Assembly (NCBI GenBank): GCA_964419615.1
Contig: CAYQPU010000006.1
Location: 15,418 to 54,521 of the forward strand
Direction of reading: 5' to 3'
Source: an uncultured Methanosarcinales archaeon
GTDB taxonomy: Archaea > Nanobdellota > Nanobdellia > Woesearchaeales > JAGVZT01
Length of the DNA: 39,104 bases
The position numbers and the translations under genes are program-made. Positions 828-15,858 of this stretch are shown here, piece after piece; within the stretch, counting starts at the first letter, position 1, and the number at the start of each line of letters is the position of its first letter. The notes beneath the pieces were generated by a model, which did no database searches, had not been told where the DNA came from, and saw only the letters and a list, made by a program, of their open reading frames with translations.

Positions 828-3800
828 ATGCTGCGAAAAAGTGAGATGAATATAAGCATTGATTTCCAAGCAATACACAACACTCTGGTATTTCATTTTT
901 CAACCATAATTGATTCTATGATATTAAATGGATATAATTTAATGACTAATTTTCTTAAATCTGATCAGACTGAATTTATCCTTCAGCAAGGGCATGAAGT
1001 AATTGAGATTCTAGAAGAGGAGCTGGATCTTTGTTTTAGAAAAGGGGTTGAGAATGCACTTAGAAAGGAAGGAGTGTATGTTAACATTTTATGGAAATCA
1101 GATAATTATAATGAACCAAAACTTGGTGGGTCTCAGAATCAATCAGATCCATGGATAGTTGGACTATATGATTGGTGCGATGGAGGAACTAATTTTGCAA
1201 GAAGGTTGCTAAAATTAGTAGATGAAAAAAAAGGGACATCTTTACTAAAAGCAGAAAGAGAAGTATTTACCTGCAATTCAAGTTCATTACTTACTTTTGC
1301 TGAAAGAATAAATGGAAAACTATCTAGGCCTATGGTAAGTATTGTGTATAGTCTTCTTTATAGAAAGACCTATTCTCATTTTAGAGAAACACAAGAGGTT
1401 GAAGGGTCTGCTTTTCTGAATGGAAAGATTCAATCCAAAGTCACAACCAACAAACCTAGTGTTGGCCTGATTAGAATAACGATTCCAAGATATGTTAATT
1501 ACATGTCAAAATATAATGGGATTTTTGAGGATAGATTTTTGTATTATCTAAGAAGAAAAAATATCAGAATAAATTGCTCAATTGCTTCTGGATCAAGTGC
1601 GAATGATTTGACAATGCTAGCAGAGGGAGAAGTAGAAGGATATATTGATATTAGAAAGAAATTTACAAGTCTTAATCCTAATCAAGATGCATGCCTACAG
1701 GAAGAGGATGTGATTTCAATTAAAGAATATCTTTCCAGAAAAGGAATCTATGTGTCAAAAGTAAATGGGCTCGTTCCAAACTTGCAGAGCGGTTTTTGTA
1801 ATTATAGTAAGAAAAATTCAATTAGTTTGGTTGCACTTAATCCAAGCAAAATAAAGGACAATGAACTTGCATATATAATTGAAGCAATAGACTTTGGATC
1901 TTACTATGCCATGCGCCAATACTTTGAAGATAAGTCAAACCAAGGGTGGCCAGCAGCACAAATAACAATTCAGGATTTTATTATGTTTAAAAAATCAAAT
2001 CCAACTGCCAAATCCAATGATTTGAAAGAGATTGTAACTCAATTTAGAGATATACTAGTTAAGGATAGCAAAGGGAATTTTGATATTATGAAGGATGCAA
2101 AGGCTTTGTTAAATAAGTGTGCAAGGAAAAATACACTTAGATCTATTGCTAATGCTGCAATAATGATGTCTCTCCTTGGAATGAATTCAGATGCTAATGA
2201 ACAATTTATTTCCTCATTAACTATTGTGAGACAGAAAATGCAAAATCTAATTGACCAAGGGGAAAATTCAAAAAAAATGAGATACAAAGAAGATTACTCT
2301 GAGTTAATGGTATACAAAAATGATCTTGCAACAGTGACATTTAATTATGCAGTACACTTGAAAAGAGAGCTAAAACTTGTTGATCCAGATGATTTTTCAA
2401 AAATACAGTTATTACACAATAAGATCATAAATTTACTGAGTGAGGCAATTGAGAATAACCCAATTAGGATTGATTGCCTAGTTAGCTATGCTGATATTCT
2501 GCATAGAGATAATCAAAGTAACAGAGCATTGGTTTATCTTATTATTGCTGACAAACTAGTGGATGAACGGGAGATTCAGATGAATCTTGACCTGCCAATA
2601 GAAACAAAGACAAAGCTTTACCAGCTTGGTGTAAGTGCTTGTAGCTCTTTAGCAAATGATGATAAAAAATTGTATTTTAATTCAAAGCTTGAGGTACTTT
2701 TCATCCCAGAGATTAGGAGAATTGCTTCTTGTTTTAGTGACATTAAGAAAGGTTCACATTTGGGAAAGGATGTAGAGAAGTTTTTGGGGATTAATGTCAG
2801 GCATTTAACTACAGACATATTAGTTCGGCTTGGAAAATTATTAGAATCACTAAAGAAAGATCAGGATAAACTTCCTGAAATAGAGAGTAATTTGCAGCTC
2901 ATATTATCTGCTGTTTTTGGCATAAATAATTGGAATATTGAGGGATATCTTGGAGTAGGAAGAGATAAATTAACCTTAAAAGTTACAGATTCAGTTATTG
3001 CGAAAGATAATGCTGCCTTGAAGATTTTAATCCCTTCCAAAGAATCCAAGAAAGAGAGAGAGAGAATGTTGAAGAACTTAAGTTCTGAGCAGATCTCAGA
3101 ATTATCCCGAACAAATCAAAATCTTGTTTACACGCATTCACCTGGCAAATTCACTGCACCTAATGGTGAGATTTACTATTTTTACTTGGAAGAATTGTTT
3201 GACAAAAACCTTGATAAGGAACTAAAAAACAAGAAATATGATTTTGTAAACAAAAATGCTATGAAAAATAGATTGCAATTATTTTTTGATATTTTCGGTC
3301 AGATAGTGAACGGAGTTAAGGGATGTCATGATTCAAATTATGTTTACGATGGACTCAAAGCAGAGAATATTGTAATTAAAGGAGATAGAATTGCACTCTG
3401 TGATTTTTCTTCAATGGTTCAGATTGGAAGTAAAGAGAAATCTGATGGTTCTATGTTAACAATGCCTGTTGAATTAATGAATGGCTGTCCTCCAAGCTTT
3501 GAAACAGATATGTTCAGGGTGCTGGCAGAAGGATATAATATTCTTTTTGGTGCATATCCCTTTTCTGAACAGAATGTAAAACCAAAGACAAAAAGGAAGA
3601 GAATGGAGTTTAACAGTATTTTAAAGGAAAGAGCCCATAAAAGGAATTATGATTTTTTATTTAATTTGGATTACAACCCTTATTTTGAGTTCCTTCCAGA
3701 TAACATTAGATTTAAGATAAAGGCTTTTTTTGAGGCAGGTCTCAAACCAAATTTATCCAAAAGAGTTTACAAAACTATTGATGAATTAAACAAGAGCTTT

Positions 3801-3836
3801 AAAAAATTAAGATTAGAATGCCAAAAATCTATTTAA
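828..3836 (+). CDS. Multidomain protein: inositol monophosphatase/FBPase-like domain, TPR-like helical region and Ser/Thr protein kinase-like (probable pseudokinase) domain
   Basis: N-terminal DWCDGGTNF (cf. DPIDGTxNF), SGSSANDLTMLAEGEVEGYIDIR and EEDVISI...GIYVSKVNG. C-terminal LGVG loop, ALK, YDGLKAEN (cf. HRDLKPEN), CDFS, PVE, TDMF and SKR. Confidence 0.75.
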   Translation: MLRKSEMNISIDFQAIHNTLVFHFSTIIDSMILNGYNLMTNFLKSDQTEFILQQGHEVIEILEEELDLCFRKGVENALRKEGVYVNILWKSDNYNEPKLGGSQNQSDPWIVGLYDWCDGGTNFARRLLKLVDEKKGTSLLKAEREVFTCNSSSLLTFAERINGKLSRPMVSIVYSLLYRKTYSHFRETQEVEGSAFLNGKIQSKVTTNKPSVGLIRITIPRYVNYMSKYNGIFEDRFLYYLRRKNIRINCSIASGSSANDLTMLAEGEVEGYIDIRKKFTSLNPNQDACLQEEDVISIKEYLSRKGIYVSKVNGLVPNLQSGFCNYSKKNSISLVALNPSKIKDNELAYIIEAIDFGSYYAMRQYFEDKSNQGWPAAQITIQDFIMFKKSNPTAKSNDLKEIVTQFRDILVKDSKGNFDIMKDAKALLNKCARKNTLRSIANAAIMMSLLGMNSDANEQFISSLTIVRQKMQNLIDQGENSKKMRYKEDYSELMVYKNDLATVTFNYAVHLKRELKLVDPDDFSKIQLLHNKIINLLSEAIENNPIRIDCLVSYADILHRDNQSNRALVYLIIADKLVDEREIQMNLDLPIETKTKLYQLGVSACSSLANDDKKLYFNSKLEVLFIPEIRRIASCFSDIKKGSHLGKDVEKFLGINVRHLTTDILVRLGKLLESLKKDQDKLPEIESNLQLILSAVFGINNWNIEGYLGVGRDKLTLKVTDSVIAKDNAALKILIPSKESKKERERMLKNLSSEQISELSRTNQNLVYTHSPGKFTAPNGEIYYFYLEELFDKNLDKELKNKKYDFVNKNAMKNRLQLFFDIFGQIVNGVKGCHDSNYVYDGLKAENIVIKGDRIALCDFSSMVQIGSKEKSDGSMLTMPVELMNGCPPSFETDMFRVLAEGYNILFGAYPFSEQNVKPKTKRKRMEFNSILKERAHKRNYDFLFNLDYNPYFEFLPDNIRFKIKAFFEAGLKPNLSKRVYKTIDELNKSFKKLRLECQKSI

Positions 3837-4401
3837 GAATCTTCTTAATAACTGCTTCAACGTTTTTAGTAAGTGTCTCAACTGTCCCCTCATTAATAAT
3901 AGTGTAATCTGCCATTGCTATTGGACCGGCACTATGAAGATCTTCGATTTCTGAGTAATCTCTTTTTTGTGCTTGTTCTTTTGTTAGTGGTCTGTTGATT
4001 GCTTTTGTATCTTCTTTTTTTAGTTTTCTATGGATGAGTCTTTCATATCTTATTTTAGGATTTGCATAGATTGCTATGTGGACAAATTGATCTTTGTATT
4101 TTTCTTTTAGAAGCTTGTACTCTTCCCAGCTCATTAGGTCATCAGCAATTATGTTGGTGGATTTCAGGTACTCATCAAATTTGGGTAATAAGAATTTGGC
4201 CATAGCTGCCATTCCATGTTCTTTTCTCATGTTTTCTCTGACTTTTTTTTCGTTTTCTTCGTTTACACCAATACCTAAACGGATGACTTCATCAAGTACT
4301 GCTTGACCAAATCTCAAGTATTTGAATCCTTGCTCTGCAAATAAGTTTGATACATCTGTTTTGCCAGCTCCTGTCATTCCAGATACAGCTATGAGTTTCA
4401 T
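3829..4401 (-). CDS. P-loop nucleotide kinase, dephospho-CoA kinase-like/UPF0200-type archaeal family (substrate uncertain)
   Basis: GMTGAGKT Walker A, RD..E lid and IAMADYTIINEG C-terminal motif. Confidence 0.75.
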   Translation of the reverse strand: MKLIAVSGMTGAGKTDVSNLFAEQGFKYLRFGQAVLDEVIRLGIGVNEENEKKVRENMRKEHGMAAMAKFLLPKFDEYLKSTNIIADDLMSWEEYKLLKEKYKDQFVHIAIYANPKIRYERLIHRKLKKEDTKAINRPLTKEQAQKRDYSEIEDLHSAGPIAMADYTIINEGTVETLTKNVEAVIKKILK

Positions 4402-4519
4402 TAGGAGTTTTATTTTGCAGCTTGCTTATAAATTTTCCCTATGTTCTATTATATAGTTTGGATTAAAGAAATGAATATAAACTTGGAAGATTCTTTTTAA
4501 TTTCTAGTTCTTGGAGGTG

Positions 4520-5203
4520 ATGAGAATAGGTGCTCAAATACTTTTAGTTGATGGAAATATTGGTGTTGGTAAAACAAAATTACTGGAACATATAGCTGAA
4601 TACTGGCAGGAAGTTACTGGTGATAAAAGAGAAATAATAATATTACCAGAAATTGTTGAGGAAAACCCTCTTTTTCCAGATTATCTAGATGCATTAGATA
4701 GATTTTATAATGAAGATGAACCAATTCCAAACAATATTGGCTTTAATACTCAACTAATTTTTTTAATAAATGGTTACAGGCAACTAAAAGAAGCACATAG
4801 GACTGCTCAATTAGAGAATGCATTGATAATAAAGGATAGAAGCTATATGGGAGATATGGTTTTTTGTCAAAAATTAAAGGATGATTTAGTAATCCCCGAG
4901 CATGACTTTATCACTTATGAAAGAATATTTGGAAAATTATCTCCTGATCTTGATGTGTCCTTGTTTATGTATCTTAGAGCAAAAACCACAACTTTGATGG
5001 ATAGAATTGCACATAGGGGAAGAATTGGAGAAGAAGCTTATGATGAAGAGTACATTGATGACTTGACAGTTAGGCATGACCAGATTTTTGATGATTATCC
5101 TGGCAAAAAATTAAAATTACAATATGACATGCCAAATATTTTTAGTCATACTGATAGAGAAGAGATTTTTTTAAAACTATTTAAGGAATTAAATGGAATA
5201 TGA
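4520..5203 (+). CDS. Deoxynucleoside kinase (dNK family)
   Basis: DGNIGVGKT, FNTQLIFL, DRSYMGDMVF and RIAHRGRIGE lid. ATG4520 is preferred over TTG4511, which overlaps the GGAGGTG SD. Confidence 0.85.
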   Translation: MRIGAQILLVDGNIGVGKTKLLEHIAEYWQEVTGDKREIIILPEIVEENPLFPDYLDALDRFYNEDEPIPNNIGFNTQLIFLINGYRQLKEAHRTAQLENALIIKDRSYMGDMVFCQKLKDDLVIPEHDFITYERIFGKLSPDLDVSLFMYLRAKTTTLMDRIAHRGRIGEEAYDEEYIDDLTVRHDQIFDDYPGKKLKLQYDMPNIFSHTDREEIFLKLFKELNGI

Positions 5204-6543
5204 ATCTAATTAAAATTGGCAAAGATCCAAATTTGAATAGAGATATTAGTAAGTTGGTGAATTTCAAACCAAAATTACAATTGTTTAATGCAGGTGATGT
5301 GTTTGTTGGACATCCAAGTTCTAATCTTGCTATTGGTGTGATTTACACATGGAAAGAGGATCTTGCTCCAAGTCATGTTAAAGAGTTTTTGCAGAAATTG
5401 TCTAATTATGCTTATCTTTCTGGTTTTTGGAGAACTACAAATGGAACTAAGTATGTATTTGCTAATGTTTTAGCTAATCCAAATGTAAATAAACTTGTGA
5501 TTCTGGTTTTTGGACAAAAAGACAACGGTCATTTGTTGGTTGATGCTCTTGAAAGTTTTTGGAAAAATGGTGTTAACGAACAGCTGAGAATAATTGGAAC
5601 AAAAGCTCAGAATCCAAAGTTTGAACAGGTTTCAATAGAAGGATTGGATAGAATCCGAGAACAGTGTGATCTGATTGTGTTGAGGAATGTAAAACCAGCC
5701 TACCTTGGAGTTGTTGAGAAGTTGATAAAGAATTCTGTTAATACTCCAAAGAATGCTGTGAAGGTAGATGATTGTAAATTAGATATTAGTTTTATTTCTA
5801 ATGTTTTAGACAATAAAATAATTTATGATGATGGTGCTCGGTTTAAAGAACCGTTTGATGTTGATTTGAGTAATGATTCTAGTAAACTAAAGATTGAAAA
5901 GCATACAGTCTCTAGTACACTAGGTGGAGCTGTTCAAGCAAAGAACCTTGATGCCGCACTGCATGTTATCTCAGACCATGTTTTTACTAATGGAGCTTTG
6001 AATGTAGATGAGAGGAATTTTCACACTATTGAAAGCAGGAGTTTTACAGTAGTGATTGAGGATGCACTGGAAAAGATCCCTATAGGTTTTTCAACTGAAT
6101 ATGTTATGAATTATGTTGACGAGTTTATGAATGGGTCCAAGCAAAAGCAGAGTTATAATTATCACGATAGGATCTTTAAGAAATGGGGGAATCAAGTTGA
6201 TAGAGCATTAAAGAAGTTAAAGCAAAATCCTGAAACAAGGAGAGCAATAATATCTCTTTGGGATCCAGAGGAAGATTTGGAGTCATCAAATCCACCATGT
6301 TTTAATTTTATTAGTGCAATTGCTAGAGATAGTAAACTTGAGTTTCATGTTGTTTTTAGAAGTCATCATCTTGCAACAGTTGATTCCAAAGGTGGAGTGA
6401 TTTTGGGAGAAGGTGCATTTGTTCCAAATTTATATGCCATTGCGTCACTACAAAAAAGAATGGCACAAAAATTAAATATAAAAAGAGGTCCTCTAGTTTT
6501 GACAGATTTGTCTGGGCATCTGTATGTGAGCGGGATAAAATGA
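5200..6543 (+). CDS. MtrA-like N-terminal domain fused to a thymidylate synthase (ThyA/dNMP C1-transferase) domain
   Basis: N-terminal ANVLANPNVNKLVILV-GQKDNGH111LLVDALESFWKNGV...RIIGTKAQNP matches MtrA. C-terminal RRAIISLW, PPC367F, FRSHH, N410 and GHLY match the TS fold. ATGA overlaps with both neighbours. Confidence 0.8.
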   Translation: MNLIKIGKDPNLNRDISKLVNFKPKLQLFNAGDVFVGHPSSNLAIGVIYTWKEDLAPSHVKEFLQKLSNYAYLSGFWRTTNGTKYVFANVLANPNVNKLVILVFGQKDNGHLLVDALESFWKNGVNEQLRIIGTKAQNPKFEQVSIEGLDRIREQCDLIVLRNVKPAYLGVVEKLIKNSVNTPKNAVKVDDCKLDISFISNVLDNKIIYDDGARFKEPFDVDLSNDSSKLKIEKHTVSSTLGGAVQAKNLDAALHVISDHVFTNGALNVDERNFHTIESRSFTVVIEDALEKIPIGFSTEYVMNYVDEFMNGSKQKQSYNYHDRIFKKWGNQVDRALKKLKQNPETRRAIISLWDPEEDLESSNPPCFNFISAIARDSKLEFHVVFRSHHLATVDSKGGVILGEGAFVPNLYAIASLQKRMAQKLNIKRGPLVLTDLSGHLYVSGIK

Positions 6544-7199
6544 GGGGTCGTAAAGGTATGTTAATAGTTGTTTGTGGAATTGATGGCTCAGGCAAGGGGA
6601 CACAGTGGAAAGAGCTAAAGAAGAGATTTAGGGAAGAAGGTTACAAAGTAAAAGGTTTTGACTTTCCACAATATGGTAAAGAATCCGCAAGAGATGTTGA
6701 GAAATACTTAAACGGAGAATTCGGACCAAAAGAATTAATTGACCCAAAGGTTGTTTCAGATTATTATGCTCAAGATAGATTTTCTGTTGCACCAGAAATT
6801 CAAAAGCATTTGGATGAAGGTTGGATTGTCCTTTGTAATAGATATTCTTCATCAAATGGAGGTCACCAATCAATAAGGTATGAAACATATGATGAGAGAA
6901 TTGAATATTTAAATTGGTTATTTCAATATGAATATGGTGAGCTTGGTATCCCTAAACCTGACCTTACTTTTATTACAGATGTGAATCACCAATTAGCACA
7001 GGAAAATGTTAAGAAAAAAGGTGCCAGAGATTATGTTGGTGGAGAAAAAATGGATATTCACGAGTCAGATCCAATGCATTTGTTAGGTGCTAGAGATGTT
7101 TACCAATGGCTTGCTAATAGGTACGATGATTGGCACTTAATTAATTGTATGCACAGTGGTGCTATGCGATCTGTTGAAGATATCCATGCAGAAATTTGA
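6540..7199 (+). CDS. tmk: Thymidylate kinase (dTMP kinase) paralog 1; probable premature TGA, with the natural end at 7241
   Basis: GIDGSGKGTQ, DFPQY, NRYSSSNGGHQ and PKPDLT. The frame continues GMIVPYLANLKDQ to tandem TGA TGA (7239-7244). Confidence 0.85.
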   Translation: MRGRKGMLIVVCGIDGSGKGTQWKELKKRFREEGYKVKGFDFPQYGKESARDVEKYLNGEFGPKELIDPKVVSDYYAQDRFSVAPEIQKHLDEGWIVLCNRYSSSNGGHQSIRYETYDERIEYLNWLFQYEYGELGIPKPDLTFITDVNHQLAQENVKKKGARDYVGGEKMDIHESDPMHLLGARDVYQWLANRYDDWHLINCMHSGAMRSVEDIHAEI

Positions 7200-7256
7200 G
7201 GTATGATTGTTCCCTACTTAGCAAACCTAAAAGATCAGTGATGACTCTTTTTTGAT

Positions 7257-7270
7257 AAAGTATTTAAACT
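7257..7270 (+). promoter_or_regulatory. BRE-TATA for the second tmk (leaderless spacing)
   Basis: AAAGTATTTAAACT, ending about 22 nt before ATG7292. Confidence 0.5.
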
Positions 7271-7291
7271 ACATATTTCTAAATTGGTGTT

Positions 7292-8011
7292 ATGGGAGGA
7301 TTTGTTATTGTTGATGGGATTGATGGTTCTGGTAAAGGAGTGATGATGCAGGCCTTTAGAGAGTGGGCCTCAGGTAAAAAGTGTTTAGATCTAAAGGAAT
7401 TTGGCCTTGAGAATAACAGGTTACCAACTGAAGAGGAAATTAAAGATTATGAGGTTATTTTTTCTCGTGAACCAAGTCCAGTTTATGCAGGTAAAGCCTT
7501 AACTGAAGAGATTATAAAGAATAATAATAGAGATTATTCTGTTGAAACAACAGCCTGGGCTTTTGCTATTGACAGAGAAATACTGTATAATAGAGTAATC
7601 ATTCCAGCTGTGAAACAGGGTAAGTTTGTGTTTCAAGAAAGAGGTGTTGTTACCTCGCTTGTTTACCAGCCTGTGCAAGGTAGAATGACTTTTAAACAGA
7701 TGATTCAAATGCCTGGCAACAGATTAGCATTGAAGAACTCTCCTGATTTGTTGATTCTTGCAAAGGTTGAGCCAAAGATTGTTGTTGACAGAATGAAAGC
7801 AAATGGAAAGCTTGGAAATGATATTTTCTCAACTCTTAATTTTCAAAGAAAGATTGATAGCCGATATTCCAGTCCATGGCTTCAGAGTTTGTTTGCAAAG
7901 TTTGGCACAAAGATTGTTTATTGTGATAATAATCCTCCAAAAACACCTGAGGAAACAAAAGAAGAAGTTAAAAAAATATGGATGAATTTTGTAAAGGATG
8001 AAGAGAATTAA
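7292..8011 (+). CDS. tmk: Thymidylate kinase paralog 2
   Basis: DGIDGSGKG, SREPS, DREILY...IIPA and ERGVVTSLVYQ. Confidence 0.82.
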   Translation: MGGFVIVDGIDGSGKGVMMQAFREWASGKKCLDLKEFGLENNRLPTEEEIKDYEVIFSREPSPVYAGKALTEEIIKNNNRDYSVETTAWAFAIDREILYNRVIIPAVKQGKFVFQERGVVTSLVYQPVQGRMTFKQMIQMPGNRLALKNSPDLLILAKVEPKIVVDRMKANGKLGNDIFSTLNFQRKIDSRYSSPWLQSLFAKFGTKIVYCDNNPPKTPEETKEEVKKIWMNFVKDEEN

Positions 8012-14853: not shown

Positions 14854-15858
14854 CTAAGATACCTGTAATAATCCCTCAAGACTAGCAACTATTTCTTGAT
14901 CTCCTTGTTTAAGATGTTTGCATAATTTGCATACATTTTTTGTATTTGGTAATTCATAACCAGGGAATTGTTCTTCAATAAAGGATACTACACTTGGAAC
15001 ACTGTGTATCCTTAGTGTATTTGAAACAATGTCTGCGTTTGCTGCAATCCTTAATTCATCAGCGGTTATTTCCTCTCCCATTTTATTAGTTATCAGTAGG
15101 TTTTCATCAAATATTCCACCGAGAGCGCAGCATCTGTAAACACCTTTTTCTTCTTCGGATATAGGAGCTAACGTAAGAGTTTGATTATGGCAATAGAAAC
15201 TAACTTGCTCTTGAAGACCTTTCATTCCAATTGCTCTCCCTACTTCCTCTACAGGCCAAGGAAACATTCTATAGGTAACAGTTGCTGTCTGATCAGGTTC
15301 ACTAATTATTACTGCAAAATTACCTTGTTTAAAATCCCATGTACAGGAATAATTATCAAAAGTTAGTGCATTACTTATTTCATGCAACACGTTATTTTTA
15401 GATTTATTTGGAGTTTCTATGACATTTAATCTAAGAAGATTAGCACCATTTGTTTCGATATTCTTGTATGTTAATGCTAATAAGAAATTCACTACATGAT
15501 CAACAGGTACAAATTCTTGATGACCTTCTCCAACACTTGTTGACCACTCTGCACTATCATATTTATCAATTATTATTTTTGCTTTTGATAGTGATGAAGC
15601 CCACTGCATATTGGAATTAATGTTTGTCTTAATACCATAACTGTTGCCTACCTCAATAGCTCTTTTCAAATGCTCTGGATATAAAATTGACTCTCCACCA
15701 CTTAATCCATTGAGTTCTTCCCCAAATTGGGCATTTATTTCAATCCAACTTTCAACATCATTAAATCCCAATTGAGGATTATACCTATCCATACCAGATT
15801 CATTGCAGCAATATTTGCATCGAGATCCGCATCCATATCCAAAAAATGTTCCAAACAT
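14854..15858 (-). CDS. Radical SAM enzyme, YydG/EpeE (peptide epimerase)-like
   Basis: C10xxxC14xxC17C18, SGGES, SNMQWAS, TSVGEGHQEFVP, EVGRA, C223, YRC243C244 and C310xxC313, collinear with the YydG motif order. Confidence 0.78.
   Translation of the reverse strand: MFGTFFGYGCGSRCKYCCNESGMDRYNPQLGFNDVESWIEINAQFGEELNGLSGGESILYPEHLKRAIEVGNSYGIKTNINSNMQWASSLSKAKIIIDKYDSAEWSTSVGEGHQEFVPVDHVVNFLLALTYKNIETNGANLLRLNVIETPNKSKNNVLHEISNALTFDNYSCTWDFKQGNFAVIISEPDQTATVTYRMFPWPVEEVGRAIGMKGLQEQVSFYCHNQTLTLAPISEEEKGVYRCCALGGIFDENLLITNKMGEEITADELRIAANADIVSNTLRIHSVPSVVSFIEEQFPGYELPNTKNVCKLCKHLKQGDQEIVASLEGLLQVS

Follow-up and report, generated by a model that had tools for sequence, protein, structure and literature searches.

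Introduction

To our knowledge, thymidylate (dTMP) is made by just two routes, ThyA and ThyX, both of which need methylene-tetrahydrofolate. Here we analyze a gene from a tiny, uncultured marine archaeon of the Woesearchaeales, located in a 39,104-nt stretch of DNA (positions 15,418 to 54,521 of contig CAYQPU010000006.1, assembly GCA_964419615.1; hereafter the window, in the numbering of which coordinates are given), whose product joins an N-terminal MtrA-like domain to a thymidylate synthase (TS) domain. An original prediction, made from the letters of the window alone, had taken this protein for a one-carbon transferase acting on deoxyuridylate (dUMP) with a non-folate, possibly corrinoid donor, which is consistent with every in silico test reported below (dUMP site, pterin loss, and cobalamin contacts). 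From the intact dUMP site, the dismantled pterin pocket, the conserved cobalamin contacts, and the coupling to a dTMP kinase (Tmk) gene, together with the lack of detected folate enzymes and the presence of cobamide enzymes in a near-complete genome, we propose, with a probability of roughly 0.4, that the fusion may be the thymidylate synthase of this cell and independent of folate, the fused cobamide domain delivering the one-carbon unit.

The closest described counterparts of the TS half are the short archaeal enzymes of the TIGR03283 family, whose cofactor has been poorly studied (PMC9012536). They share with the fusion a ThyA fold of ~200 residues without the small domain, an RR pair supplied by the partner subunit, the Cys, the Asn, the HxY motif, and a short C-terminus. 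What distinguishes the fusion is that RSHH stands where they have RS[HN]D, that 12 residues are inserted, and that an MtrA-like domain precedes the TS; it also forms a clade of its own. With MtrA and its cytoplasmic homologues (PF04208; structures 5LAA, 5L8X, and 8Q3V), the N-terminal half shares a Rossmann-like fold and the axial His, and it resembles the cytoplasmic homologues in having no membrane helix. In contrast to subunit A of the Mtr complex, no membrane helix follows the MtrA-type domain of the fusion, the TS domain being found there instead. The fusion further differs from MtrA in the replacement of Glu54 by Thr and of Tyr18 by Val, and in being joined to an enzyme that acts on nucleotides.

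An MtrA-like domain followed by a short TS also occurs in fusions that additionally carry a C-terminal PF14251 domain (PterinBD-DUF4346), but these keep RSxD, have no insert, and lack the axial His and most of the cobalamin contacts. The bifunctional dihydrofolate reductase (DHFR)-TS of protozoa and plants likewise carries a cofactor-handling domain N-terminal to TS and was recovered among two-domain Foldseek matches; however, the root-mean-square deviation (rmsd) over both domains is ~20 Å, the N-terminal domain is DHFR rather than MtrA, and the enzyme is fully folate-dependent. ThyX and the FAD-dependent, TS-fold dCMP monooxygenase 9IQC are precedents for pyrimidine C5 chemistry in which folate is replaced or supplemented by another large cofactor. 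Nonetheless, ThyX has an unrelated fold and still requires methylene-tetrahydrofolate, whereas 9IQC, the structure that the TS domain matches best, acts on dCMP.

Methyl transfer from methyl-Co(III) to thiolates is known for MtrA and MetH, and transfer to a carbon nucleophile is known for TsrM. These systems (MetH, MtrA-to-coenzyme M transfer, the core methionine synthases, and TsrM) offer a possible parallel, in that methyl-Co(III) is attacked by an enzyme-activated nucleophile; what sets the fusion apart is that its methyl group would go to C5 of Cys-activated dUMP, and that a methyl-loading module is lacking. The core methionine synthase MesA has been predicted to use an MtrA-bound methyl group (PMC7857596), which provides a precedent for biosynthetic use of such a group.

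Domain Architecture and Family of the Fusion Protein

The fusion gene and its parts, all on the forward strand, are as follows:
5200..6543, +, MtrA-like/TS fusion gene, 447 aa; an intact open reading frame (ORF) with two Pfam domains above cut-off
5245..5847, +, MtrA-fold domain of the cobamide-binding type, residues 16-216, assigned by structural superposition and phmmer against 5LAA
5848..5913, +, interdomain linker, with disorder predicted for residues 231-238 (predicted local distance difference test, pLDDT, <50 over 231-238)
5914..6540, +, short archaeal-type TS domain, residues 239-447, assigned by the TIGR03283 match and fold matches

Both halves named in the original prediction were recognized by Pfam, namely MtrA (PF04208) at residues 58-194 (E-value 8e-14, 52.1 bits against a cut-off of 25) and Thymidylat_synt (PF00303) at residues 328-443 (E-value 3e-9, 36.7 bits against 24.3). 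The NCBIfam model of the methanogen-type TS, TIGR03283, matches residues 246-442 with 109.9 bits, under its cut-off of 174.55. The AlphaFold (AF2) model of the whole fusion has a pLDDT of 88.2 and a predicted TM-score (pTM) of 0.85. Judged by its sequence, the fusion is a homologous member of both the ThyA and the MtrA superfamilies. All of the residues singled out at the outset are present at the positions given for them: GQKDNGH ending in His111, the RR pair (R347 and R348), Cys367, RSHH ending at residue 390, Asn410, and HLY followed by five residues.

A word-indexed search returned 127 homologues with 44-72% identity that share the two-domain architecture, nearly all of them 440-470 aa long and originating from metagenomes or metagenome-assembled genomes labeled Woesearchaeota, Nanoarchaeota, or Nanobdellota. 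As had been surmised, such fusions already exist in databases as uncharacterized annotations, some under automatic names, e.g., 'thymidylate synthase/tetrahydromethanopterin S-methyltransferase subunit A'. Stand-alone shorter versions were not seen in the homologue search, which yielded just fragments on short contigs. The conservation counts given below refer to 117 full-length family members with an overall identity of ~50%. Chance does not account for the features of the fusion, with 127 homologues sharing its architecture and 117 full-length sequences carrying identical key residues. A literature search, the coverage of which left out most subscription journals, yielded no publication that deals with an MtrA/TS fusion or with a B12-dependent TS.

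Thymidylate Synthase Domain

The TS domain was aligned with other short TS proteins, with the MtrA-like/TS/DUF4346 fusions, with the paralogue from the same genome, and with canonical ThyA. The following features were identified:
6298..6300, +, Cys367 codon, position of the catalytic nucleophile, in line with the Cys of both short TS and canonical ThyA (117/117)
6427..6429, +, Asn410 codon, uracil-specifying position in the alignment (117/117)
6358..6369, +, RSHH motif, residues 387-390, with His390 in place of the pterin-binding Asp of RSxD (117/117 for H390)
6379..6414, +, clade-specific 12-residue insert, residues 394-405, ending in GEG, a gap in all 11 other TS aligned

The residues of the dUMP site are almost completely invariant: R272, R347, R348, C367, R387, S388, N410, and H440 are found in 117/117 members and Y442 in 112/117. 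The insert after RSHH, already noticed in the original prediction, stands out against the 11 other short TS and canonical ThyA alike, and within it G403 and G405 are conserved in 117/117 and E404 in 115/117 sequences. None of three features of folate-dependent TS (the Asp of RSxD, the C-terminal closing segment, and the Trp loop) is found in the fusion. The Trp-containing folate loop of canonical ThyA corresponds to a gap, as in other short TS, and the chain stops five residues past HLY with no C-terminal folate-closing lid. The short chain end had been counted as atypical; its length was given correctly, but, with short archaeal TS ending 10-20 residues after HIY, it is near normal for such proteins. 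Taken together, the alignments indicate that the pterin side of the TS site is dismantled and the dUMP site is complete. The fusion protein contains three Cys, Cys367 being the sole conserved one, and an Fe-S-assisted reductive role is therefore unlikely.

The fold of the domain is best matched by 9iqc (VIA-align Z 20.2) and the hydroxymethylase MilA 5jnh (Z 18.8), followed by ThyA 3ix6 (Z 16.7; rmsd 2.3 Å over 178 residues) and phage T4 deoxycytidylate hydroxymethylase (dCH) 6l18 (Z 15.9). The prominence of hydroxymethylases and of a flavin-dependent dCMP monooxygenase among these matches would fit an enzyme that is not a dTMP synthase and instead makes another C5-modified deoxyuridylate (e.g., 5-hydroxymethyl-dUMP or an oxidized form) for DNA modification. 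We consider such a product improbable. The structural ranking probably reflects the small size common to these TS-fold enzymes, whereas Asn410, His440, and Tyr442 match dUMP-using TS; the genomic evidence on this point is given below.

A homodimer was predicted with an ipSAE of 0.79, against 0.00 for the best control; among solved structures, 20 of 30 pairs and 1 of 23 single chains attained this mark. The modeling runs had at least 70% of contacts in common, with a partner pLDDT of at least 83. The predicted interface is confined to residues 232-438, i.e., to the TS domain, and residues of the N-terminal domain are not at the inter-chain interface; R347/R348 of one chain contact R387/S388 of the other, as in ThyA. 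This score may, however, stem from likeness to solved ThyA dimers.

N-Terminal MtrA-Type Domain and Cobalamin Contacts

Residues 16-216 of the AlphaFold model superimpose on the cobalamin-bound cytoplasmic MtrA homologue (5laa_B) with a Z of 17.0 and an rmsd of 2.1 Å over 155 of 159 residues, the best unrelated fold being far lower (Z 5.8). In 5LAA, cobalamin is contacted by Asp17, Tyr18, Lys52, Thr53, Glu54, Asn55, Gly57, Val61, Asn64, and Asn82, and His84 is the axial ligand of cobalt; Glu54 hydrogen-bonds the His ligand and Tyr18 stacks on the lower base (PMC4915002). These positions were mapped through a phmmer alignment of residues 32-168 with 5LAA (E-value 3e-12), in which the contacts and the ligand correspond to D33, V34, R78, T79, T80, N81, G82, V86, N89, N109, and H111. 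The two principal elements are as follows:
5530..5532, +, His111 codon, equivalent to the axial ligand His84 of MtrA in the 5LAA alignment (117/117)
5434..5466, +, T79-T80-N81-G82...N89, equivalent to T53-E54-N55, G57, and N64 of MtrA (contacts to the cobalamin tail and propionamides) in the 5LAA alignment, all 117/117

The assignment of His111 as the counterpart of the axial-ligand His of MtrA was thus borne out by its alignment with His84. Seven of nine other MtrA contacts considered (Asp17, Tyr18, Thr53, Glu54, Asn55, Gly57, Val61, Asn64, and Asn82) are kept, as D33, T79, N81, G82, V86, N89, and N109; Glu54 and Tyr18 are replaced. T79, N81, G82, N89, N109, G110, and H111 are present in 117/117 family members and D33 in 115/117. 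Conservation in the N-terminal domain is thus highest at the positions by which MtrA holds its cobalamin, which provides good indirect evidence, but no proof, of a bound cobamide. Besides these, Y209, D210, G212, and R214 of a YDDGARF motif just before the linker are invariant in an alignment of 30 sequences.

Folate and Cobamide Genes of the Fusion-Bearing Genome

The genome that carries the fusion (G000; 1.48 Mb, 99.4% complete) was searched for other thymidylate and folate genes, a check raised by the original prediction. No thyX, folA, glyA, or pterin-binding gene was found, the profile searches of G000 giving no match for ThyX, DHFR, serine hydroxymethyltransferase (SHMT), or the pterin-binding domain (Pterin_bind), and a canonical ThyA was not found either. 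FolD gave a sub-threshold match only, and tblastn searches of G000 with ThyA, DHFR, and SHMT of relatives returned nothing. For enzymes that could load a methyl group, G000 has no match for MtrH (PF02007), Pterin_bind, MttB, or MtaA-type URO-D, and the MtrB-H partners of the Mtr complex were not found. With respect to formaldehyde supply by the ribulose monophosphate (RuMP) pathway, just a 36.6-bit sub-threshold match to HxlA (hexulose-phosphate synthase) was obtained. The fusion contains the sole MtrA-type domain of the genome.

The ribonucleotide reductases (RNRs) of G000 belong to the adenosylcobalamin-dependent class II (TIGR02504, 653 bits against a cut-off of 400), and six genes with a B12-binding domain are present. 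By these matches, the cell is a user of cobamides. Three class II RNR genes of 573-694 codons stand in tandem (contig 4, 15348-21168, minus strand; L004 and L005). A 398-aa 'core' MetE-like methionine synthase (PF01717) is encoded on contig 19 (L013:1414-2610, minus strand), in this same genome without detected pterin-binding or folate enzymes; the genome points to a methyl donor neither for this enzyme nor for the fusion.

The only other TS-family gene of G000 encodes 221 aa on contig 31 (L001:1489-2154, minus strand) and was rejected as the real TS, with Gly at the position of the nucleophile and Ser at the Asn position. Its kin occur at L014:1377-2033 and at L021-L032 and belong to a TS-like family of ~215 aa that is widespread in the order, in genomes with or without the fusion. 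In 11 of the 13 genes sampled, the catalytic Cys is replaced by Gly, Ser, or Ala and HY by HF, and RSND is retained. A 410-aa ORF without a Pfam or NCBIfam match overlaps the gene in G000 and G151.

Distribution of the Fusion among Related Genomes

The fusion occurs in 6 of 41 relatives, with the following complements of thymidylate genes:
G000, G151, and G154 (99-100% complete): fusion intact; ThyX, canonical ThyA, DHFR, and SHMT not found
G152: fusion intact; ThyX present
G177: fusion intact; ThyA-DHFR-SHMT cassette immediately downstream
G184: N-terminal domain kept, TS half without RR, Cys, and RSHH; ThyA-DHFR-SHMT cassette 6 kb away

A ThyA-DHFR(-SHMT) cassette also adjoins an intact fusion in L010. 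The cassettes (L017:9734-12389 in G177, L018:1818-4424 in G184, and L010:9421-10772) are compact and look like a transferred folate-cycle module that landed in the thymidylate locus. In the fusion orthologue of G184 (L018:9504-10649) the MtrA-like domain is kept, including DNSH with its His, and tblastn detected no TS remnant in another frame. The presence of a folate-cycle cassette at the locus, together with the decay of the TS half in G184, suggests an equivalent role for the two systems.

These distributions bear on two alternatives. For a C5-modified deoxyuridylate as the product, the persistence of an intact fusion next to canonical ThyA in G177 and L010 is a favorable point; on the other hand, such a product would leave three near-complete genomes without any dTMP synthase, and in G184, where ThyA, DHFR, and SHMT are present, the TS half has decayed. 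It is also conceivable that the fusion is a relic with little or no catalysis and that thymidylate comes from salvage alone through the adjacent deoxynucleoside kinase (dNK), the gene of which is co-translated with that of the fusion. In its favor, some relatives (G168, G171, and G172) have neither ThyX nor any TS-family gene. We regard a relic as very improbable, since the invariance of catalytic and ligand-contact residues over 117 sequences, at the overall identity given above, points to strong purifying selection, and real decay of the TS half, as in G184, loses these residues.

Two Designs of MtrA-Like/TS Fusions

When 1.84 billion representatives were searched exhaustively, 839 relatives were recovered. 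Among the 146 relatives examined, RSHH is confined to the clade of the fusion, whereas other short TS and the MtrA-TS-DUF4346 proteins nearly all have RS[HNQE]D, with a handful carrying other residues. On a tree built from 154 TS domains, the proteins with RSHH fall into a single clade (15 rows, SH-aLRT 92; 98 for the inner 13 rows).

Many relatives are longer (~460-540 aa) and consist of an MtrA-like domain, TS, and the C-terminal PF14251 domain, which is absent from the fusion of the window. In 42 distant fusions, the MtrA-like domain keeps just a structural core (G82, N89, N93, and P94) and generally lacks the His. In four of them the ligand position is occupied by Gly-His, and each of these four ends at TS, without a PF14251 tail, whereas only 1 of 37 distant fusions with a tail of 80-137 residues has His at this position. 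The pattern implies that two designs seem to exist, a His-type MtrA domain with TS and a His-less MtrA-like domain with TS and DUF4346, and by this comparison the fusion of the window represents the first design in its most derived form. The axial His and DUF4346 are almost mutually exclusive among the MtrA-like/TS fusions as a whole (P0135-P0273). DUF4346 carries conserved motifs of its own, HAxYLGxEL and YxQD; its origin as a split-off piece of MtrA was rejected (hhalign probability 0.2%).

Locus Context

The genes around the fusion are as follows:
828-3836, +, 1002-aa ORF lying just upstream of the kinase genes
3829..4401, -, divergent 190-aa P-loop kinase, AAA_18 by Pfam, a conserved neighbor
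4511..5203, +, dNK gene (Pfam dNK, E-value 1.9e-21), its stop overlapping the fusion start (ATGA)
6540..7199, +, dTMP kinase gene (Thymidylate_kin 1.3e-18; NF005923, 103.8 bits), its start overlapping the fusion stop (ATGA)
7292..8011, +, second dTMP-kinase-like gene (Thymidylate_kin 4.4e-18; TIGR00041, 78.6 bits, cut-off 83.25)

Fusion-Tmk adjacency or an AAA_18 neighbor is recurrent in eight related loci. A Tmk gene lies immediately downstream of the fusion in five of the eight, the AAA_18 orthologue adjoins the fusion in L010, L011, L014, L015, and L017, and a dNK gene occupies the equivalent place in L014 and L015. In the window, the fusion is surrounded by four genes of P-loop nucleoside or nucleotide kinases (AAA_18, dNK, Tmk, and Tmk-like; 3829-8011). 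The AAA_18 protein has a weak match to archaeal (d)CMP kinase and to the kinase portion of a model for anti-phage dCTP deaminase. The two Tmk paralogues and the total of four kinases at the locus favor, to some extent, synthesis of a C5-modified deoxyuridylate, which would then be phosphorylated by one of the two adjacent Tmk-like kinases.

A scan for promoters and terminators gave counts at chance level and, being of the bacterial type, is uninformative for an archaeon. The stretch was matched in marine or seawater DNA metagenomes only (two studies), with no RNA data set among them.

Proposed Reaction and Its Weak Points

In its boldest version, one-carbon delivery by the fused cobamide domain would make the protein a third kind of TS after ThyA and ThyX, independent of folate, in which a protein-bound methyl-cobamide on the MtrA-type domain directly methylates Cys-activated dUMP; this version is tentative, and we lean away from it more than toward it. 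In the proposed reaction, the N-terminal domain would hold the cobamide His-on through His111. Cys367 would attack C6 of dUMP, bound in a site to which the partner subunit of the homodimeric short ThyA-fold enzyme contributes R347' and R348', and the resulting C5 carbanion would accept a methyl cation from methyl-Co(III), leaving Co(I). The N-terminal domain could swing between positions on the linker, partly disordered at residues 231-238. Elimination would release dTMP, to be phosphorylated by the co-translated dTMP kinase. The cob(I)amide would then be remethylated; G000 points to no donor for this step, S-adenosylmethionine or a host-derived methyl compound being guesses.

Several observations weigh against a cobamide-assisted TS. 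The methyl supply is its weak point: no cobamide-methylating enzyme was found in G000, nor is one conserved beside the fusion gene. Of the two contacts lost, Glu54, the His partner in MtrA, is replaced by invariant Thr80, and the equivalent of Tyr18 is Val34 (Val or Ile across the family). Most MtrA-like/TS fusions elsewhere lack the His, so that an MtrA-like domain can serve a TS even when no cobamide is bound His-on. Intact fusions are found next to canonical ThyA (G177 and L010) and together with ThyX (G152), and may therefore not be redundant with them. Finally, thymidine salvage could be at work, a deoxynucleoside kinase being encoded.

Three of these points (the His-less domain in most fusions of other lineages, the lack of an encoded methyl donor in G000, and the loss of Glu54) also favor a TS for which scavenged pterin or free formaldehyde is the one-carbon source, with an MtrA-like domain that carries no one-carbon unit and acts as a structural scaffold or senses cobamide. 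These symbiont-like cells are likely to import many of their cofactors, and two His-bearing fusions, P0177 and P0190, retain RSxD. This alternative is possible, if on balance unlikely. His390 replaces the pterin-binding Asp throughout the family, SHMT, DHFR, and Pterin_bind were not found in G000 and FolD is sub-threshold, and no hexulose-phosphate synthase scores above cut-off as a supplier of formaldehyde. A scaffold is difficult to reconcile with strictly conserved cobalamin-contact residues, which suggest a bound ligand. A sensor would tie dTMP synthesis to the B12-dependent supply of deoxyribonucleotides, but seems redundant, the supply of dUMP being already B12-dependent through class II RNR.

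Implications

The fusion is the sole intact TS candidate in near-complete genomes without detected folate enzymes, has lost its pterin determinants, and has an apparently intact cobamide site, which raises the question of whether B12 is used in place of folate for making a DNA base. Even if it is not, the role of MtrA-like domains outside methanogenesis would still be defined. If it is, the reaction would be a new B12-dependent one, and ultra-small archaea free of folate could make thymine. The inference of thymidylate auxotrophy for DPANN archaea would then change, and the finding would bear on thymine synthesis in lineages that never had folate. Should the cobamide reading hold, the family would constitute a third class of thymidylate synthase.

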